From: an uncultured delta proteobacterium
GTDB taxonomy: Bacteria > Desulfobacterota > RBG-13-43-22
DNA: 64,000 bases
Direction: 5' to 3'
Assembly (NCBI GenBank): GCA_963821645.1
Contig: CAWGEQ010000039.1
Coordinates: forward strand, 5,766 to 69,765
Shown here: positions 3,585-15,660 of the stretch, piece after piece
Layout of the letters: the number at the start of each line of letters is the position of its first letter
Numbering within the stretch: position 1 is the first letter of the stretch
Notes under the pieces: generated by a model
Database searches by the model: none
What the model saw: the letters and a program-made list of their open reading frames with translations, nothing else
What the model was told of the DNA's origin: nothing
Position numbers and translations under genes: made by a program

Positions 3585-4035
3585 TACAAGGAAGTCCTTC
3601 GACGGCCTATCCGTCCCAGGAACAACCCGTTATTGTCCAAAACATGACAATTTTTTGTCCGATCATGGAGGTTAAAACCTGTCCCTCAGCCTATTCCTAT
3701 CCTTCAAAGGTCCCCTCTTAAACCTTAAGCTCACCAAAATAATTGTAATTTCACCGTTTAATAAATTAATGGCTTAATTGTTGCAAATAGAATATATAAA
3801 ACTAACTGGGAAAATGGGGTTTTCGGCTTTTACCAGAAAAAGGAATTTCTATGAGAAGTAAATAATATCGACCAGATTCTTCAATGCAACTGGTGAACTT
3901 TTTGAATATCATTGACAAATTTATTTTTACCGCCCGTTTGCTTCGCGCACTTGACCAAGATTAGACGAGAAAAGTAATTTGACTCTTTTGCCTTGAGGAG
4001 ATAAAAACAATCAGCCCCGGATGCGCACAGACCTT

Positions 4036-4243
4036 TGCGGACGATAGATTTTTTCATTGCCCGAAAAAACCCGGCAATGAAAAACCAGTCAGGCGCTACT
4101 GCGCCACTGGGCAGAGCCGGAATTTGCGCTTGGGGAGTGTCGCCCAAGGGCAAATATCCCAGTAATCCCGGTAATCAAGCGAGGGAACGAGCGGGCGGTT
4201 CCAAAGGGTTAAACTTTTAAAAATGACCAACTAATTTGGAGAT
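4036..4243 (+). repeat. copy A of a ~200-nt structured element (paralogs at 11752-11998 and 15446-15660, inverted)
   Basis: Aligns by eye with the reverse complement of 11752-11998. Shared blocks: cccggtaatcaagcgagg..cgagc..gcggttccaaa and atgaccaactaatt. Hairpins at 4051-4083 and 4124-4153. Confidence 0.55.
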
Positions 4244-4287
4244 GATCCAAAAGTTTTTATAATAATTCACAACCATAAAAGGAGCAA

Positions 4288-5442
4288 ATGCTAATGGACA
4301 CACCAGCAGGTAAGACACTTGATGCAAATCTTGATAATTCCTACTTTGACGTGAGCAAGGGTCCAAGCGGGTTCGGTCCCCTTGAGACCCTTATGGAAGA
4401 TCAAAGCGTCACGGACATCCTCGTCGATAATTTTGATAAGATCTACGTTGAGAGGAAAGGGAAACTGGAACCTACGGATCTCAAGTTCAAAAGCGAAGCC
4501 GAATTGCGGGCCCTCATAGACGCCATTCTCACCGCCGTAGGCCGCCGGGTGGATGAATCGTGGCCCATGGCGGACGCGAGGCTCGCTGATGGTTCCCGGG
4601 TCAACGTCATTATACCGCCGCTCGCCATTGACGGCCCGAGTATGTCCATACGACGCTTCCGGAAAGACCCGCTGCAACTTGAGGACCTGATCGCCTACAA
4701 GACGCTTACTCCGGTAATCGGAGAACTCTTGGAGGGCATCGTCCGGGCCAGGCTGAATGTCTTAATTTCGGGAGGAACGGGGAGCGGTAAGACCACCCTC
4801 CTCAATGTGCTTTCGGGTTTCATCCCTTCGGATGAACGTATTGTCTCTATCGAGGACTCCGCCGAGCTTCAACTGAAACAACAGTACGTGGTCCGTCTCG
4901 AAACGAGACCGGCCAATACCGAAGGAAAGGGGGAGGTTATCGCCAGGGACCTGGTGAAAAACAGCCTCCGGATGCGGCCGGACCGGATTGTGGTCGGCGA
5001 GGTAAGAGGGGGGGAAGTTTTAGACATGCTGCAGGCGATGAACACCGGGCACGACGGTTCTCTTTCCACGATTCACGCGAACTCCCCTCGCGACGCCCTG
5101 GCCCGCTTGGAAACGCTCGTAGCCATGTCCGGGCTCACCATTCCCCACGAGGCCGTCAGAAAGCAGATCAGTTCTGCCATCGATATCATTATTCAGGTAT
5201 CTCGCCTCGGCGACGGCAGCCGAAAATTGGTCAGTCTTCAGGAAATCGCCGGCATGGAAGGCAATGTGGTTACCATGACGGAGATGTTCTCCTTTGAGCA
5301 AACGGGGGTGACGGAGGAGGGGAGGGTCAAAGGCCTATTTCTGCCGAAGGGCGTCAGACCTAAGTTTGGCGAAAAGTTCCGTGCTCTTGGCATAGAATTC
5401 CCAAAGCACGCCTTCGACCCTAGTCACTGCGTCGAGATTTGA
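4288..5442 (+). CDS. CpaF/TadA-family type II/IV secretion ATPase
   Basis: 384 aa. Walker [10 protein letters not shown], Asp/His box region ([30 protein letters not shown]). RBS aaaggag 6 nt upstream. Confidence 0.85.
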
Positions 5443-5570
5443 AAAGGAATTTCTTGTCAAACAAACGGAATAGAATAATACTCTCATGGACCTGAAACCC
5501 TGAGATTGTAACCCTCTCTTTCAAAGCTGTCTTGACAAAGGGGGCTGCTTAAGGTTAGTAAGATTGCTCC

Positions 5571-7673
5571 ATGACAGATTCTGAGAACATAACTGACGCA
5601 CGAAACGAGCGGCTGGCTGTAGCCATGCTCACCTGCACCGTTTTCTTTGGGGCTGTACTTCTTTTCAGCCTGGAGCCCCTTGTCGGTCGACTGTTAACAC
5701 CCTATTTTGGCAGTGCCGCTCATGTTTGGCTGACTTGTCTCATGTTCTTTCAGGCCATGCTTCTCCTGGGGTATCTGTATGCCCATCTTCTCGCACGTAA
5801 ATTAGGAGCCTGGCATCTGCTTTTCCTGCTTATTCCCTTGGTGAGTCTGCCCTTGCGAATGGGTGCAAACCCCAATCCAGGCGCACCACTTCTCGCCATT
5901 CTCGCGACTCTGGTTTTTCATGTGGCACTCCCGTTTATTGCACTCTCAACCACAGCCGTGGTCGCTCAGACCTGGCTCGCCAATTCCCCGGCGGGACGAA
6001 ATAGGGAGCCATACCCGCTGTACGCCGCTTCAAACGCAGGTTCACTCCTCGCGCTTCTCGGATACGCTTTTCTGATTGAGCCCCTTTCCGGCCTGCGGGT
6101 GCAAAGCTTCGTCTGGTCAGGGGCATACATCGTTTATGTGTTGCTTGTCCTGGTCACCTGGTTCCAGCTTCGGCCAGGCAAAGAATACAAGGAGAACTCC
6201 GAGGCAAACATCGAGACGGTAACACCCCAACCGCTGAAGCTCACCGTGTATGCGCAATGGTTTTTGCTGAGCGCGCTTCCTTCTGCTTTTCTTCTGGCGA
6301 CCACCAACTACATTACACTCGAAGTCGGTTCATTCCCCTTTATCTGGGTCATTCCCCTCGCCCTCTACCTTGGCAGCTTCATCGTGACATTTCGCACCGG
6401 TGGGGGTATACCCGGGTTCATTGAATATCCTCTGGATAGAGATACTGCTTTTGGCCTCTCTGATGTATTTGGTGGGGCCTTCGAGCTGGCTCAGCATTAT
6501 CGGCTCACCTATGCCTCTTTTTTGCTATTTGCCTTGTTGCTCACGGCAACCTATACAAGCGACGACCCGCCACTGGCTATCTCACGAACTTCTATTTGAC
6601 CTCAGCACTCGGGGGATGGCTCGGCGGCGTCATGGTGAGTCTCGTAGCCCCGCTCCTGTTCACCGGATTGTTTGAATACCCTATCCTGTTGCTCTTATTT
6701 GCAGTCACCTTCTGGTGGTGCCACCATAATGATTTCTTCACCTTCTGGCGCCGTGTCTCGTTCATAGAGGGTGGCATACGGCTACTGTTCGTGACTATTA
6801 TAGTAGCCCTTATCGCGATAATGGGCAACAAAACATCGTCATGGAACCGACCAAATTTCGGCATCGAAATTTTTACGGTGCTTATCGTGTCGAAGACGAA
6901 CCAAGCAGAATAGATATGCCCGGTGGTCTTAGAAGGTTGTATCATGGAAGAACACTACATGGCGCCCAATTATTGCGCCAAGACCTGCGCTCGGTGCCCA
7001 CGACATACTATTACGCCGGCAGCGGAATTTCCGAGGTCCTGGAAACGACACCTTCGCCACGTAGAGTAGGCATCATCGGACTCGGATGCGGTGTTGTCTC
7101 TGCCTACGCAAAACCAAATGATACGATCACTTATTATGAAATAGATCCAGACGTTGAGAAAATTGCCCGTCGATGGTTTACCTATCTTGATGACTGCAAG
7201 GGAAGGGTCCAGATCCTTATTGGCGACGGCCGTTTGTTAATGCAAAGTGGTGGAAGAGGGACAACCGAATACGATGTCATCCTAATAGATGCTTTTACCG
7301 GGGACGGCATCCCAACGCACCTCCTTACACGAGAGGCCATCGAGATATATCTTCGCCACCTATCCCAAGGTGGCGTGATGGTGTTTCACATATCAAATCG
7401 TTACTACGATCTGCGACCAGTGCTCAAGGCAATAGCCGCCGAGCTGAAACTATTGGGTGCTAGTGCGAGAACTCTGGCCAGTCAAAGTTGAAACCGTACC
7501 AGATTGCCTCAGAACTACGTGGCCCTCACTCGATCTTCCGGAACGGCTCGAACCACTGTTGAAACGCGGATGGAAACAATTTAAGAACGGAGATGGCCTG
7601 AAAGAGTACCAAGATATGGACAGATGACCACATTAATATCATTAGCCCTTTAAATTTAAAGAGATTTCGGTAA
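5571..7673 (+). pseudogene. membrane-fused spermidine synthase-like protein, multiple frameshifts
   Basis: ORFs 5571..6599, 6596..6913 and 6841..7491 in three frames, plus a tail ending WTDDHINIISPL at 7617-7673. N-terminal polytopic domain. C-terminal class I MTase/spermidine synthase-like fold (VGIIGLGCGV, YDVILIDAFTGDGIP). Confidence 0.65.
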
Positions 7674-8073
7674 TCGACAAATCACCTTGTCGAAATTGCA
7701 GCACGACCAAACAAACATTAGGACTTACCGGGCTAAGGATATAAAGCGATTAGGTGATAACATCCCAGTCCGCAAACCATAGGGGGCTTTTTGAAAAATT
7801 ACTTCCTTGTACTCGATGATTGACTGATTTCGAGAATCCTGTAAGAGTACAAACGATAATGGTTGAAATATTGTGGCAGCGTTGTGAAACCAGGCGGTAA
7901 ACAAAAAAGTTAAACATCAACCTGCGGTATCTTAGGGAAACCGGTCTATTCGACTTAAAAAAATCCGGTTCCGCGACCAAACGTGCGGACAGTGGAAGAT
8001 GCTATATGAGGATGACGACGCTGTTGTGATGCAGCGGATCGGGCAATAAGCCAATCACAGGGAGAAACAAGTA

Positions 8074-9271
8074 TTGGAATCAACCCACGCCAACAGGCGT
8101 AACAGGCAACGCTGGATGTTGCTTGGTCTCATCGTTATGATGGCAATCCTTGTGTATCTAATCAGCAGATTGGTTGCCATCCCTGGGCTCCTCGCCAATG
8201 ACTACTTGGCGTATTGGGCTGCTGGGCGTCTCAACCTCACCGGCGGCAACCCTTACGCAGCCGATCAACTTCTCGCCTTACAGCGCGGCGAAGGGCGAAC
8301 CGCTGAAGCAGTGATGATGTGGAATCCACCTTGGACCTTGGCCTTGACAATGCCGCTGTCATTGCTTAGCTTTCCGATCAGTCGCCTGCTCTGGCTCGGC
8401 CTGAGCATAGTCATGATCCTGATTAGTACGAATTGGACTTGGGCACTCTTTAGAGAAGCGACCGCCTAAGCCATGGCTCGCCTGGACGCTGGCGTTCACC
8501 TTCTTTCCCACGATTTTTACACTGGGCATGGGACAGATCGGTCCGTTGCTTCTATTAGGCGTTGCGGGCTTCCTGCATTTCGAACGGAAGAAGCGATACT
8601 GGTTGGCAGGCGCCTTCGTCGCCCTGCTGGCGATCAAGCCGCATTTGCTGTACTTGGTTTGCCTGGCAATCCTGTTCTGGAGCTGGGCAGCCGGCAACGT
8701 TGGGCCATCATCGGTGGTGCAGCCATCATCGTGTTAGCTGCGACGCTGGCAGCGATGCTATTCAATCCACAGGTCATCAACCAGTACTTAATCCTGATGA
8801 GGTCTGGCTCGCCTCTTAGTATGGGCGACTCCGACGCTCGGCTGCCTTCTTCGACTGCTATTCGGCTCAGGGAAAACCTGGTTGCAGTTCGCTCCGATGG
8901 TGGGGGGTGTCGTCTGGTTTGCGCTCTATGGCATGAAGCATCGAAAAACTTGGCTGTGGGCAGATCGAATATCGTTGTTGTTGCTCGTTTCCGTAGTGAC
9001 GGCTCCTTACGGCTGGTCATTTGATCAAGTCGTGTTGATACCCGTAGTCCTGCAAGTGGCCTGTTTAATGCTGGATGTGCACGACACCCAAACCGCGTGG
9101 AAGGTGGCGATGCCCTACATTATCATTAACATCGTGGCCTTCGCTCTTCGTTATGGCAACATCTACGACCACTGGATGTTTTGGTACGCACCTGCAATGT
9201 TGGTGTGGTATCTTTCTGCTCTTCGATGGAGCAATAATGCTAAAAAGACCGTGTTACCTGTTTCGATCTGA
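8074..9271 (+). pseudogene. DUF2029/GT87-like glycosyltransferase, at least 3 frameshifts
   Basis: Protein-like membrane segments alternate between frame 1 (8074..8469, ~8700-8830) and frame 2 (8528..8737, 8882..9271). Motifs: NDYLAYWAAGRL..GGNPY, GQIGPLLLLGVAG, AIKPHL. Confidence 0.6.
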
Positions 9272-9387
9272 TCTCGTGTTTGCTGGACCCTATGGCTGAG
9301 CCTCTCCCCAAAAACTGGACAAGACAATATGGTGCATCTGAGCACTCCCAAACCGGAAATATAAGAAAAGCACCGGGCCTTAGCCGA

Positions 9388-10730: not shown

Positions 10731-10951
10731 ATGTCTAAAGAAAAAGAAATACGATGTTATGGGTTTCGAACTTCTTCTGGGAGATGACAAGGAGTATGCC
10801 TTGATTTTAACTTGGCCGCCGAAGCTGATACTATAGATCAGCTAAAAGAGTAAAATGGGTGATATTATAAAAAGTTATATTGAAAGCGTTCTGGATACAC
10901 CCGATAAATCCACCATTATTGGCCTATTGAACCGTAAGGCTCCTTTCAGAA
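10731..10951 (+). pseudogene. decayed duplicate of the hicB-like gene
   Basis: Same first ~220 nt as 9960.., but with TGG to TGA (gggagatgacaagg) and a 1-nt insertion (gctaaaagagtaaaatg). Homology stops near 10951. Confidence 0.7.
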
Positions 10952-11086
10952 ATTTTGACTCCCGACCCTGGGAGTCAAAAAATTCCGCCTCCGATTTGTC
11001 GGGGTCTGGGATCTGACTCGGGGAGGGCATCGCCCGAGGGCAAAGAACATTCCGTCTTTATCAAGGTAGGCGGTGAGAGGCCGTGT

Positions 11087-11618: not shown

Positions 11619-11751
11619 CTACCTTCACTTGAATATTATTTTATTACAATATTAAAATAATATTCCATTAATTACTTACTCGTCAAGAAAATATTGTTGA
11701 AACGGGATCGGACCAAGCCAATAGGCTCGAAAAGTAATAAAAAAGTGTTCT

Positions 11752-11998
11752 TCTCCCAATTAGTTGGTCATGAAAAAGTCTTTAGGTTTTGGAACCGCTT
11801 GCTCGTACCTCGCTTGATTACCGGGATAAAAAACGGGACATTTATTCTTGCCCTCGGGCGAAACTCCCCGAGGGCAACCCTTCAGCTCTGCTCTGCCGAG
11901 CTCCGGGATTGCAGGTTCGCGTCAGCGACAGGCTGTTTACCCGGCACAGGATCGTGCCGGAGGAAAAATATTATCCGTAATGGTCCAGTCGTGGTCAA
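11752..11998 (-). repeat. copy B of the ~200-nt structured element, with its own promoter-like signal
   Basis: Minus-strand TTGACC (11998-11993), 17 nt, GATAAT (11975-11970). Hairpins ccggcac/gtgccgg (~11941-11960) and 11848-11877. The 3' block cccggtaatcaagcgaggtacgagcaagcggttcc is shared with copy A. Confidence 0.5.
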
Positions 11999-12020
11999 GT
12001 GACCGAAGGGAACGGGCGGT

Positions 12021-13431
12021 TTATAAATAATCATTAACAATGCCCACCAAATCATAGGGGTGGGCCTCAATAATCTTGACTTGTACTATCTCCCCGATCT
12101 TCGGTTCCCCATCGGTAATATAGACCACTCCATCCACCTCCGGGGCCTGAAAACGGGTCCGGCCTTGAATCAATAACTCGCTTTCCGGACTGATCCCGCT
12201 TACCAGGACCGGCTCCAGAGAACCGATCCGGTTTTCATTCTTCTTAAGAGAAATTTTCTTCTGGGTCTCCATTAAGAGATCCAGCCGGGCCTTACCGATT
12301 TCTTCCGGCACCTGGTCCGCATAGCCGGCAGCCGGGGTGCCTTCTTCCCGGGAATATCTGAAAACTCCGAGATGATCGAACCCCGTCTCGGAAACAAAAT
12401 CAACCAGCTCCTGAAAATCTTCTTCTGTTTCCCCGGGAAAGCCCACCATGACCGTGGTCCGAAGGGCCGCTTGCGGGAGTGTGCGACGAATTTTTTGGAT
12501 CAAGTCCCTCAAGGCTTTTTGCCCGTAGGGCCGATTCATGGCCTTAAGAATCCGGTCGCTGATATGTTGTATGGGGATGTCTAAATAAGGACAGATCTTT
12601 TCCTCTTGGGCCATCAAGGCTAAAAGGTCCGGGGTAATCCTTTCCGGCCGCAAATAAAGCAGGCGCAGCCATTGAAGGGACTCTATCTTTAACAATTCAA
12701 CAATCAACTCGTTCAAAGAAAGCGGCTGAACAAGATCGGACCCGTAAGCCGTCGTATCCTGGGCGATCAGGATGAGTTCACGGACCCCCTGCCCTGCCAG
12801 GATCTGCGCTTCCTGAATCAGCACCTTTGGGTCGCGGCTGCGGAAGGGTCCCCGGATAGAAGGGATTGTGCAGTAGGCACAGCGATTGGAACACCCCTCG
12901 GCGATCTTCAAATAAGCCGTTCCCGGAGAGGTGGTCAGGAGACGGCCATGCGGTTCTGCCCACAGTCCGGGAACAGGATCCAAAATCATTTTATGCGTTT
13001 TTCTCCCGGCCAGAAGGGCGGATACCTGATCGGCCACGGTCAAAAAAGATTCCGTGCCCAGGAAGAGATCCACTTCGGGTAATTGATCTATCAACTCAAT
13101 TCCCATATCTTTGTGGAAAACACCCGGTGACCACCAGGATCTGACAGGCCCCTTCCTCCTTTAATCGGGCCGCCTCTAAAATAGTGTCGATGCTTTCCTG
13201 GGTGGCGGATTCGATAAAGCTGCAAGTATTGATCAGGATCACTTCAGCCTTATCAGGGTCCTGAGTCAAAGAAAAACCCTTGGCCTCCAATTGATGGAGC
13301 ATGATCTCGCTGTCCACCTGATTCTTGGCACAGCCGAGGCTGATGAAATAGATCTTGGGAAAAGAAGGGGTCGAGGGGTCCAGGATTCGAGGATTCGAGG
13401 GTTTCGTTTTTGGGTTTGATTTGCTTTTCAT
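12021..13431 (-). pseudogene. rimO: ribosomal protein S12 methylthiotransferase RimO, one frameshift near 13100 (or sequencing error)
   Basis: ORFs 13096..13431 (ISLGCAKNQVDSE, VVTGCFPQRYG) and 12021..13106 (radical-SAM CSNRCAYCTIPSIRGPFRSR, C-terminal TRAM) lie in different frames. Confidence 0.85.
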
Positions 13432-13447
13432 TTGACTCCTTAGTTCA

Positions 13448-13599
13448 TGTCCATCCGGAAACAGTATCTTTCCGGATGGAGCGGTCAGCTATCAGCTGTT
13501 AGCTTTCAGCAAAATCTTTTACATTAATGAGTTAGCTGAATGCTGATCGCTGACTGCTAAAAGCTTCATCCGGGAATTTTGGATTTCCGGATGAGAATA
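13448..13599. mobile_element. MITE-like copy (R3) of the tccggaaa/TCAGCTN element inserted in the rimO leader
   Basis: 152 bp between TTCA (13444-13447) and TTCA (13600-13603). The paralogous leader at 15401-15420 has a single TTCA and no insert. Confidence 0.6.
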
Positions 13600-13663
13600 T
13601 TCACCAGACACCGAGAACACCGAGCAGAATCTTGTTTTATGAAGAAACGGGAGCCCCGTTTCT

Positions 13664-13846
13664 TCATGAGCGTATGGAACCATTGGGTTGTTTAAGCTCT
13701 ACGTTCCGGCAAACCTCAATATAAACAACCGATGGGCTTACCTTATCCACTGCGGTTATTACCGCCGTGGAATAGGCGTCCAGCAGGTCCTCGTCGGAAG
13801 GGACCGGTCTGCCTTGCGTCTCGAGTCTGCATGCCAAATCTTTCAT
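13664..13846 (-). pseudogene. N-terminal fragment of an HtrA/DegP-like serine protease
   Basis: 60 aa, DEDLLDAYSTAVITAVDKVSPSVVYIEV matches the region preceding the trypsin-like domain and then stops. A 14-bp hairpin follows (13639-13669). Confidence 0.4.
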
Positions 13847-14062
13847 CGGATACTAATCTAAGAACCTTTTTCATTACTTTCTCCTGCAAGGTGCCGTATT
13901 CGAAATATTTAAATCTAATCATCCCAAGGGAGTTTTGCAACCGCAAACGATGAGGGATTAAGGCGGGTGGTCCACCTAACAATTTGAGGATGTTTATAAA
14001 AAAGGGCTGGCCGGAAGTTTTGTCCCCGGATTCAAAAACCGCATGGAGAACATTTGACCGCT

Positions 14063-14188
14063 AATTCGCCACGGTGCTGAAGGTCATACGGGTCCTCGGC
14101 TTGCGCCTGCACGCAACAACGGCACATTCATAACCTTCATCCCGGAAAGATAGCTCACCTGGGCGGATGGGCGGTTCCTAATATTCCC
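14063..14188. repeat. ~126-bp direct repeat, left copy, flanking higBA
   Basis: Aligns with 15042-15168 (aattcgcc..gtgctgaaggtcatacg...gcacgcaacaacggcacatt.ataaccttcatcccgg...ggcggatgg.cggttcc.aatatt). Internal dyad tgaaggtcat / ataaccttca. Confidence 0.7.
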
Positions 14189-14228
14189 CCAACTTATATT
14201 GTGTACCCGGAAAATCGTAATTTTTTTC

Positions 14229-14258
14229 TTGACAAATCGTAACCCGTGGGGTTACATT
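14229..14258 (+). promoter_or_regulatory. putative higBA promoter with palindromic operator
   Basis: TTGACA 14229-14234. Palindrome gtaacccgtggggttac 14239-14255 overlaps a -10-like tacatt. ATG follows at 14265 (near-leaderless). Confidence 0.45.
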
Positions 14259-14264
14259 TTGATC

Positions 14265-14543
14265 ATGATCAAGTCATTTAAGCATAAAGGTCTTGAGGAT
14301 TTCTTTTATACAGGAAAGAAGAAAGGTATAAAGCCTGAACATGGCGACCGGCTTGAGAGAATTCTTGATAGATTAAATTCCGCCAACGAATTAAAAGATA
14401 TGAATTATCCAGGTTCTCACCTCCACAAGTTGATGGGAGATAAAAAAGAGCACTATGCTGTAAAAGTATCCGGGAACTGGAGGCTTTTTTTTGAGTTCAG
14501 AGGCGGCGATGTCTATCTGGTTGATTACAACGATTATCACTGA
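14265..14543 (+). CDS. higB: HigB-type (RelE/ParE family) toxin
   Basis: MIKSFKHKGLEDFFYTGKKKGIKPEHGDRLERILDRL...NWRLFFEF..GDVYLVDYNDYH is the typical proteic-killer pattern. The internal ATG of ORF 14199..14543 is chosen as start. Confidence 0.8.
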   Translation: MIKSFKHKGLEDFFYTGKKKGIKPEHGDRLERILDRLNSANELKDMNYPGSHLHKLMGDKKEHYAVKVSGNWRLFFEFRGGDVYLVDYNDYH

Positions 14544-14554
14544 GAGGTAAGAGC

Positions 14555-14869
14555 ATGAGAAAAATCGGAAGAAAACCAACCCACCCTGGGAAGATTATAA
14601 AAGAAGATTATTTAAAACCATTATCCCTCACGATCAGCGAATTGGCCTCGACTCTCGGCGTTTCAAGAAAAACGTTATCAAAGATTATTAATGAAAGAGG
14701 CGCTGTTACTCCGGATATGGCACTTCGTTTATCCCGAGCCTTTGAAACGACCCCTGATCTTTGGCTTAATCTACAAAAGAATTACGATTTGTGGCAGGCA
14801 GAGCATACATCGGATGATTGGCAAACGGTAAAACCGCTCTCTCTACAGGTGCTTCATGCTCAGTCATAG
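14555..14869 (+). CDS. higA: HigA-family antitoxin (XRE HTH)
   Basis: HPGKIIKEDYLKPLSLTISELASTLGVSRKTLSKIINERGAVTPDMALRLSRAF. Confidence 0.85.
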   Translation: MRKIGRKPTHPGKIIKEDYLKPLSLTISELASTLGVSRKTLSKIINERGAVTPDMALRLSRAFETTPDLWLNLQKNYDLWQAEHTSDDWQTVKPLSLQVLHAQS

Positions 14870-15041
14870 ACAGGGCCGCAGAGACGGCCCTTGAGGAAGG
14901 AGACCCTGATGCTGTGCTGGCGGGCCGTCGCTTTGAGAAGGATATCAGTCCCGCGCCAAAGGAATGAGCCCGGATAGCTCTGAGACCGGGCTTGGGCGCA
15001 AAAGCCTGCATATAAGCGCCTTGTCTCCGAAGGAAATCCCA

Positions 15042-15168
15042 AATTCGCCCACAGTGCTGAAGGTCATACGAGCTCTGGGCTTAGCGCTTGCACGCAACAA
15101 CGGCACATTGATAACCTTCATCCCGGTAGATCTAATCCCTTTCCGGCGGATGGACGGTTCCAATATTG
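15042..15168. repeat. ~127-bp direct repeat, right copy, flanking higBA
   Basis: See 14063-14188. Confidence 0.7.
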
Positions 15169-15346
15169 CTCCCCAGTCCTTTAACCGGATTGAACTCAGA
15201 CCGACAGTACACAGAAATTTCTAAATGGAATGAAGAACCTCCCCTGGATCACTGGAAATTAATCCTGACAAATTTCGGCCCTACTCCCAAATTGGTCAAA
15301 TTGTCCCCTAATTGTCAATATAAAAGATTTGATCCCAATTACTTCG

Positions 15347-15445
15347 GAGGGGTCGAGGATTCGAGGGTTTCGATTTTGGGTTTGATTTGCTTTTCATTTG
15401 ACTCCTTGGTTCACCACGAGACACCGAGGACACCGAGTAAAATCC
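15347..15445 (-). repeat. duplicate of the rimO RBS plus first ~17 codons and the CACNGAG repeat
   Basis: Reverse complement reads gattttactcggtgtcctcggtgtctcgtggtgaaccaaggagtcaaatgaaaagcaaatcaaacccaaaatcgaaaccctcgaatcctcg. Matches 13365-13443 plus 13600-13630. Confidence 0.75.
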
Positions 15446-15660
15446 ATTTTTTTGCCACAGACAAAGGCAGGACGAGGTGGCGGTGACTTGCCGCCCCCTC
15501 ATTGTCAGGCCCTTCGGGCACTTGAAACCAGCTTCGCCACTCCAGGCTGACGGCTGGTTTACCCGGCCTGTTTTTGTTGGGCCGGGGAAACAATTTTTCG
15601 TCCAGTTTTGTCCGTGTGAGTCGGTGGCAAAAACATTTTAAAACAACTAAGGTGTTACAA
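15446..15660 (-). repeat. copy C (more diverged) of the ~200-nt structured element
   Basis: Shares ggctg.tttaccc-hairpin-g.aaa.aat.t..cgtccag and ttg.cac.gact with copy B. Bracketed by inverted CACNGAG-type arrays (15414-15445, 15666-15695). Confidence 0.4.

Follow-up and report, generated by a model that had tools for sequence, protein, structure and literature searches.

What kind of element lies on the minus strand between rimO and a toxin-antitoxin operon in the window, the 64,000-nt stretch of a metagenome-assembled genome (MAG) analyzed here? The original prediction, made from the letters alone, regarded it as one of three copies of a ~200-nt multicopy small RNA with compensatory hairpin changes and a promoter of its own; taken at face value, this three-copy claim risks placing a false "multicopy small RNA" in the catalogue. 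The answer that we favor, as probable though by no means certain, is that the element is one of a lineage-specific family of modular, palindromic repeats, interspersed between the genes of an order of sulfate-reducer-like bacteria, non-coding and non-autonomous, of the same kind as BOX, BIME, REPIN and Correia elements. This repeat family is previously undescribed (a full-text search of open-access papers returned no description of such repeats for this lineage), and we claim membership in no named family.

Much of what had been read from the three copies is present in the sequence. Copies A and B align with a local score of 107 (shuffles, 17.6 +/- 2.2), but copy C, which had been aligned with them along most of its length, yields only two short matches. 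The pairing changes between A and B are as described, both in stem 1 (cattgcc/ggcaatg versus ccggcac/gtgccgg) and in stem 2 (ttgcgcttggg/cccaagggcaa versus ttgccctcggg/cccgagggcaa), and so are the TTGACC-17-GATAAT signal of B, the inverted CACNGAG arrays that enclose copy C, and the flanks of B, which starts on the final base of the rimO stop codon and downstream of which lies a MazE-type antitoxin gene (PF04014). No open reading frame is conserved, and A and B have no common reading frame. Three details have to be corrected, however. The "-35 block" said to be kept in C reads ACGGAC there and not TTGAC, and the T2SSE/CpaF-like ATPase gene 3′ of A (ATG at 4288; Pfam PF00437) begins 39 nt from the element rather than 45. 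Moreover, the element is multicopy to a greater extent than the three copies claimed: BLAST and a covariance model (R1, constructed from eight full copies) locate no fewer than 13 copies, full or partial, in the MAG (53 contigs, 76% complete), which in the window comprise A, B and a further fragment (Table 1), and additional covariation was found as well. Copy C, on the minus strand, is not recovered by R1 (E about 0.3); it retains a degenerate box, GGAC repeats, a hairpin CCCGGCC/GGCCGGG and a mirror-box remnant TCAAGTGCCCGAAGGG, and hairpin 4 is absent from it.

Table 1. Positions of the repeat copies and their modules in the window, and of further copies elsewhere in the MAG (given by contig; bit scores and E-values are from covariance model R1).
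Feature	Position	Strand	Description
Copy A	3929..4248	+	69.6 bits, E 5e-16
Left terminus of A	3929-3955	+	followed by an insert of ~75 nt
Hairpin 1 of A	4055-4079	+	
Hairpin 4 of A	4124-4153	+	
Right terminus of A	4165-4200	+	
M6 box of A	4223-4248	+	
Fragment of a further copy	10923..11068	+	24.7 bits, E 5.5e-5; right-arm remnant with hairpin-4-like stem and TTTATCAAGG
Copy B	11747..12021	-	full inverted-doublet element with 3′ M6 box; 199 bits, E 5e-48
Left-arm terminus of B	11994..12021	-	AACCGCCCG + 13-nt box TTCCCTTCGGTCA + CTTGAC
Promoter-like TTGACC-17-GATAAT in B	11970..11998	-	10/12 consensus matches; overlaps two GGAC repeats ~10 nt apart
Hairpin 1 of B (left-arm hairpin)	11941..11960	-	CCGGCAC-GATCCT-GTGCCGG
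Hairpin 4 of B (right-arm hairpin)	11848..11877	-	TTGCCCTCGGG-GAGTTTCG-CCCGAGGGCAA
Right-arm terminus of B	11793..11827	-	ATCCCGGTAATCAAG + variable centre + CGGTT; mirror of left terminus
M6 box of B	11747..11771	-	ATGACCAACTAATTGGGAGAAGAAC
Copy C	15446..15660	-	decayed partial relative; short local matches only, z 4.3-5.5
MAG copy	C34:43734		
MAG copy	C9:3328		
MAG copy	C16:6333		
MAG copies	C36		two, either side of an HTH/PIN pair
MAG copies	C15 and C12		duplicated pair
MAG copies	C31		three 5′ fragments

The unit from which all these copies are built is an arm of ~90 nt, in which AACCGCCCG is followed by a 13-nt box (TTCCCTNNGGTCA) or a variable hairpin, then by CTTGAY, two or three GGAC(A/G)A repeats spaced ~10 nt apart, a T-run and a GC-rich hairpin. 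A full element consists of two such arms arranged head to head, with the box in the left arm and the variable hairpin at the corresponding place in the right arm; the 38 distinct full-length doublets extracted from all loci measure 172-285 nt. The 5′ block AACCGCCCG-TTCCCTNNGGTCA-CTTGAC, when reverse-complemented, corresponds to the 3′ block TCAAG-(variable)-CGGGCGGTT, and the terminal inverted repeat AACCGCCCG/CGGGCGGTT is perfect. When elements are cut between hairpins 1 and 4, the left half and the reverse-complemented right half are 73-77% identical over ~78 positions, which is 4-7 sd above shuffles, with the exception of copy B at about 2 sd. Since the halves align in inverse orientation, the element is an inverted doublet of the arm, and since the 5′ block is mirrored at the 3′ end, the predicted "-35 block" is the 5′ arm of a long palindrome. 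With its two arms placed head to head, the element folds into one long, imperfect hairpin on which two local hairpins form the cap. At locus L183, the left arm has an 18-nt insertion whose complement is present in the right arm.

The two arms are not conserved equally. The left-arm terminus is the most conserved module of the family, with invariant columns in alignment A2 and identical or nearly identical occurrences at 9 places in the MAG genome, whereas the right arm is far less conserved. Both hairpins combine conserved loops (consensus GAYNNT for hairpin 1 and GANNNTCG for hairpin 4) with variable stems, of which we count 20 distinct examples for hairpin 1, flanked by TTTTTC and GAAAAG, and 24 for hairpin 4, flanked by GTTG and CAAA. 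The M6 box is a separate module, and heptamer-repeat hairpins in a sister genome are likewise bounded by it.

Compensatory changes maintain these hairpins, as the original prediction had proposed. In an alignment of 44 distinct forward copies (A4), 93% of cells pair, versus 35-50% when the partners are slid, and 17 of 43 pairs have changed on both sides, counts that are indicative and are not probabilities because the model itself served to fit the alignment and the copies are related to one another. Changes on both sides are found in 7 of 9 pairs of hairpin 1, in 4 of 5 pairs of the GGACG:TGTCC helix and in 4 of 11 pairs of hairpin 4 (98% of cells paired), and in 0 of 10 pairs of the outer AACCGCCCG:CGGGCGGTT helix, which is conserved in sequence without covariation. 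Folding of the element as a whole has no strand preference in energy: the z-scores for the two strands of copy B are -3.3 and -3.6, and over 38 copies the mean strand difference is -1.2 kcal/mol, with the top strand favored in 20. The distinct stems of hairpins 1 and 4, read on the box-carrying strand, contain G-U pairs and A-C mismatches in a ratio of 15 to 5 (6 to 1 in an independent set of stems collected by regular expression). This excess is a modest hint, drawn from stem sequences, that there may be a single preferred folding strand, and an RNA carried by the element would explain it too.

The distribution of the family is that of a lineage-specific element. Matches at E <= 0.01 occur in 16 of the 21 genomes of the taxonomic family, which represent its whole order in the genome collection, and the element is absent from 20 genomes of other families of the phylum. 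Of 401 genomes sampled across the phylum, 4 contain an exact 21-nt pattern of the box, and these belong to a single genus (g1); the reversed pattern has zero matches, and the box is absent from 388 genomes of 110 other families. Among named genomes, the box was found in 13 stretches from ten MAG records, six of which are labelled delta-proteobacterial. A metagenome scan recovered it in 101 stretches, about half of them from a single sample (Ga0233425) and many at contig ends, and more than 60 loci are known from metagenomes. Plasmid, phage and viral-contig collections hold no relatives, the three box matches in viral contigs being at chance level and without the element. Only a tRNA passes the Rfam gathering thresholds in the whole window, the best Rfam hit to copy B at permissive thresholds has E = 3.4, and no known mobile-element end matches the element. 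One locus with GGTAATCG, the box and GCGGGCGGTTAAAC resides in a MAG labelled Opitutales, of another phylum (L092), and could be due to horizontal transfer or to a binning error.

Copies are found as singlets or doublets, and also in tandem arrays and as mosaics within which other units are nested. Within the MAG, copies I/J and K consist of a left arm only, E/F lack the left terminus, and copy G and the first C36 copy end within the loop of hairpin 4. In elements from Ga0233425, extra 27-nt units are present zero to two times in the right arm, and the element is bordered left and right by other palindromic units. There is a subfamily in which heptamer arrays stand in place of hairpin 4 and the elements follow one another head to tail, 25-30 nt apart. 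Recent proliferation to near-identical copies is evident in one sample, where nine copies of 231-259 nt lie on different contigs with unrelated left flanks and identity starts abruptly at TTAATACGAAAATAACTTAT/AACC. The adjoining units in Ga0233425 contigs (L108, L125, L132, L176 and others) include ~60-nt tandem palindromic units of the form TATTTTCATGCTTCGTGG-(variable hairpin)-CATGAGGGTTTAATACGAAAATAG that flank the elements, and their stems have compensatory variation of their own.

Near-identical genomes also differ in the copies that they carry. In genome G009, whose rimO is 98% identical, both copy B and the MazE-type toxin-antitoxin pair are missing. The site is not a clean empty one, as a heptamer hairpin bounded by the M6 box stands there instead, with the junction inside the last rimO codons. 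The copy A locus, with an orthologous copy at G009:C60, and the copy C region, which is 97% conserved upstream of rimO, are retained in G009. Copy D is common to genome G013 only; the cassette downstream of it, BrnT/BrnA, is found elsewhere in four other genomes without the element, and the search for an empty site at D found that synteny downstream of its upstream gene is not conserved outside G013. Two further differences between the MAG (G000) and G009 fall in the window. A ~1.9-kb segment with a HigBA-like pair (window 13365-15445, G000:C39:19130-21210), with ~60 bp of the rimO start duplicated at its flanks, is absent from G009, in which rimO joins the copy C region directly. In addition, ~3.9 kb after the CpaF-like gene (window 5441-9364, G000:C39:11206-15129) have no counterpart in G009:C60, which is otherwise 90-98% identical around this interval.

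Folding on both strands, mixed orientation, mosaic forms and near-identical copies, together with the lack of a terminator, are traits of interspersed palindromic repeats. All copies are intergenic. Downstream genes are co-oriented with the element in 52 cases and opposed in 32 (crude ORF calls, n=84), and between co-directional gene pairs 30 copies lie in sense and 18 in antisense. If the element is such a repeat, its copies would be spread or exchanged by a putative trans-acting protein whose recognition sites on single-stranded nucleic acid would be the box, the repeats and the loops of the hairpins, and the RAYT-like Y1 transposases are the sole candidates near copies for this role. A copy that is transcribed could, with a predicted structure of -60 to -150 kcal/mol, serve as a processing or stability element on the host mRNA. 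The left arm, for its part, would supply an inward-facing sigma-70-like promoter, as in Correia elements.

Several observations nevertheless count against the repeat interpretation. No consistent direct repeat that could represent a target-site duplication is seen at the flanks, where adjoining repeat units obscure the exact ends of the element (only the copy at L031 lies between direct repeats, of 15 nt), and no cognate transposase or insertion sequence with matching ends was found, the Y1 genes of the MAG itself having other ends. With neither a target duplication nor a clean empty site, transposition itself is something that we infer. The far better conservation of the left arm is unexpected for terminal repeats bound by a transposase, and both the conserved promoter-like geometry and the G-U excess have to be weighed on the same side. 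No protein recurs as a neighbor of the copies except for a Y1_Tnp (RAYT-like) gene, which adjoins arms at three metagenome loci (L144, L155 and L170). The gene at L170 (in the region L170:600-2205, metagenome contig Ga0315276_10180963) encodes a RAYT-like Y1 transposase with a C-terminal HTH; it lies between two copies of the last ~90 bp of its upstream gene, and it is bracketed not by the arms but by direct copies of a different palindromic unit, TTTACCGATTT..CTCAAAGCA..AAATCGGTAAA. The MAG also has a RAYT-like Y1_Tnp gene outside the window (G000:C39:101509-102486, 325 aa, in the region G000:C39:101440-102560), and this gene is flanked by 22-bp inverted repeats, GGGGAYGTTGTTTCTGAATTGA, that are unrelated to the element.

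The alternative that survives best is the small-RNA gene of the original prediction, in which the left arm would be a portable promoter (upstream box, -35 TTGACA, -10 GAYNAT), a possibility that we consider unlikely; we give as little credence to its second part, a structured RNA that would start with hairpin 1 and include hairpin 4 and the conserved UGUCC..UUUAUCCCGGUAAUCAAG. Its premises of multiple copies and covarying hairpins stand, the hairpin loops are conserved, and the promoter-like signal does recur. A hexamer with A2, T6 and at least three of six matches to TATAAT lies 16-18 nt after TTGAnn in 61 of 95 unique arms, compared with 4-9 of the 95 at control offsets of <16 nt or >23 nt; at the adjacent offset of 20-22 nt the score is 47, owing to the GAT and T-run region. 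The most frequent combination joins TTGACA to GACGAT or GATGAT. The best argument for a small RNA is that the geometry is kept in the heptamer-armed subfamily, with GATAAT or GAGAAT at 16 nt despite an unrelated heptamer spacer, and the excess of G-U over A-C always falls on the strand that this promoter would transcribe. However, the promoter-like block is one arm of an inverted duplication, and the -35 and -10 bases are mirrored on the other arm, such that TTGATT-17-CATAAT also appears on the bottom strand and the geometry may simply follow from the duplication. In A-type arms a third GGAC repeat disrupts the promoter spacing, and no credible terminator follows the signal. Moreover, truncated and single-arm copies are common, near-identical copies reside at many loci, the element lies in either orientation to its neighbors, and the whole element folds equally well on either strand.

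A bolder form of this idea, which we hold to be rather doubtful, would combine mobility and transcription. Each left arm would be a portable protein-binding box plus a sigma-70 promoter firing a highly structured RNA of ~150-200 nt, the element would be a mobile small-RNA gene at dozens of loci, and the box shared with heptamer-armed cassettes would mark a common "arm-cargo-arm" RNA machinery. Heptamer-armed hairpin cassettes of other Desulfobacterota-type MAGs do have the same 22-nt box at their foot.

We regard it as improbable that the element is a single-stranded DNA substrate on which an integron-like recombinase, or a HUH/Y1 enzyme of the RAYT or IS200/IS605 type with specificity for one strand, would act in recombination or transposition, an enzyme that would recognize, with similarly low probability, the conserved-loop hairpins and the asymmetric box. 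Conserved loops on variable stems, the mild preference for one strand, the breakpoints of truncated copies in or next to hairpin loops and the RAYT-like Y1_Tnp genes adjoining arms at the three metagenome loci are what such an enzyme would lead one to expect, but the Y1 gene of L170 and the RAYT-like gene of the MAG are associated with other repeats, as noted above, and inspection of the sequences revealed neither a GTAG nor a CGTC tag. Integron attC sites are 57-141 nt long with an R″ box RYYYAAC and an R′ box GTTRRRY, one site per cassette. An attC site was rejected for the present element, in which AAC...GTT is present but with flanks that misfit (GTTCCAA), the length is 172-285 nt, and copies stand in tandem with no ORF separating them. 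A cis-regulatory leader of the riboswitch or attenuator type for downstream toxin-antitoxin and accessory genes is very improbable and was rejected on the orientation statistics (of 84 genes downstream, no more than 52 run in the direction of the element) and because the BrnTA cassette moves independently, for although six MAG copies (B, D, I, J, K and the first of C36) lie just upstream of, and co-oriented with, genes of the MazE-type, BrnT/BrnA, Fic, DUF433/DUF5615 and HTH/PIN kinds, these genes are functionally unrelated, a separate promoter-like site belongs to the toxin-antitoxin operon that follows B, and tandem copies have no gene between them.

The interspersed repeat that we favor can be compared with several known systems. 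MITEs are non-coding, multicopy elements of 50-800 bp with terminal inverted repeats of at least 10-15 bp, a target-site duplication of 2-10 bp and a cognate transposase or insertion sequence with matching ends (PMC11602168, PMC3049150). The present element corresponds to them in size, non-coding nature, copy number and inverted repeats, but not in possessing such a transposase. Closer by description are the BOX elements of Streptococcus pneumoniae and S. suis, composite repeats of the form boxA-boxB(n)-boxC (PMC3049150). Both families are composite and intergenic, with terminal modules that pair, internal modules of variable number, strong predicted stem-loops if transcribed, a clustered distribution and no identified dedicated transposase (PMC3049150). 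Here, however, the terminal modules are inverted ~90-nt arms, each with a GC-rich hairpin, and the host lineage and the modules are different; we claim no relation in sequence.

REP, REPIN and BIME sequences share with the present family GC-rich palindromes arranged as singlets, inverted doublets and mosaic clusters in alternating orientation, as well as compensatory upkeep of stems, persistence within a lineage and the proximity of Y1-transposase-like genes to some copies (PMC3116915, PMC2817692, PMC3733652). The inverted doublet of GC-rich palindromes is thus a trait that the element has in common with REPINs. Their arms, however, are 20-40 nt long rather than ~90 nt, the arms here are unequally conserved, and we find no RAYT flanked by these arms. 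A conserved GTAG or CGTC tetranucleotide marks the foot of REP palindromes (PMC3733652), and neither is present at the foot of the palindromes in the present family. The Correia elements of Neisseria (CREE/NEMIS) resemble it in having a length of ~100-300 bp, long terminal inverted repeats and promoter-like -35/-10 signals within the repeat (reviewed in PMC3049150 and PMC11602168, where PMC3024310 is cited for the promoter). Either type would form a long double-stranded RNA hairpin if co-transcribed, and Correia elements are RNase III targets (PMC3049150). In contrast, the 26-bp terminal repeats, TA duplication and IHF site of Correia elements have no demonstrated equivalents here.

A comparison can also be made within the same genome. 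Heptamer-repeat hairpins share the intergenic niche of the present family and are bounded, as it is, by the M6 box, and copy C is enclosed by heptamer arrays, which in one subfamily take the place of hairpin 4 and in a second abut the 22-nt box. Nevertheless, the arms of the heptamer-repeat hairpins are made of 7-nt repeats, whereas the present family has arms of unique sequence and encloses no four-helix-bundle gene. In the second, heptamer-armed family, the 22-nt box CCCGTTCCCTTCGGTCACTTGA has TCTCTCG on one side and a (CACAGAG)n arm on the other; the element is closed by the opposite arm and contains the CATTGCC..GGCAATG hairpin of copy A. This arrangement was seen at L099, L124, L133, L134, L143, L160, L164, L190, L193 and other loci, as well as in a MAG labelled Desulfatiglandales (L090).

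Recognition of the family accounts for contig breaks and long intergenic regions in these MAGs, and for differences in toxin-antitoxin islands, next to rimO and other genes, between near-identical genomes. It also offers a clean case of an inverted-doublet repeat whose arms pair a conserved promoter-like module with conserved-loop hairpins. If this promoter is active, insertions would rewire the expression of neighboring genes, as Correia elements do. Knowledge of the family should aid annotation and strain typing in a poorly studied order. An unusual setting for the left arm is found outside the window on contig C31 (G000:C31:8400-26230), where the first ~100 codons of a gene (625 aa, weak NERD match) are present at least seven times. 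Three of these gene-start copies are joined to a left arm and then to accessory genes (Fic; DUF433 with DUF5615/PIN), a layout that looks like the result of repeated insertions, each duplicating the 5′ end of the gene.
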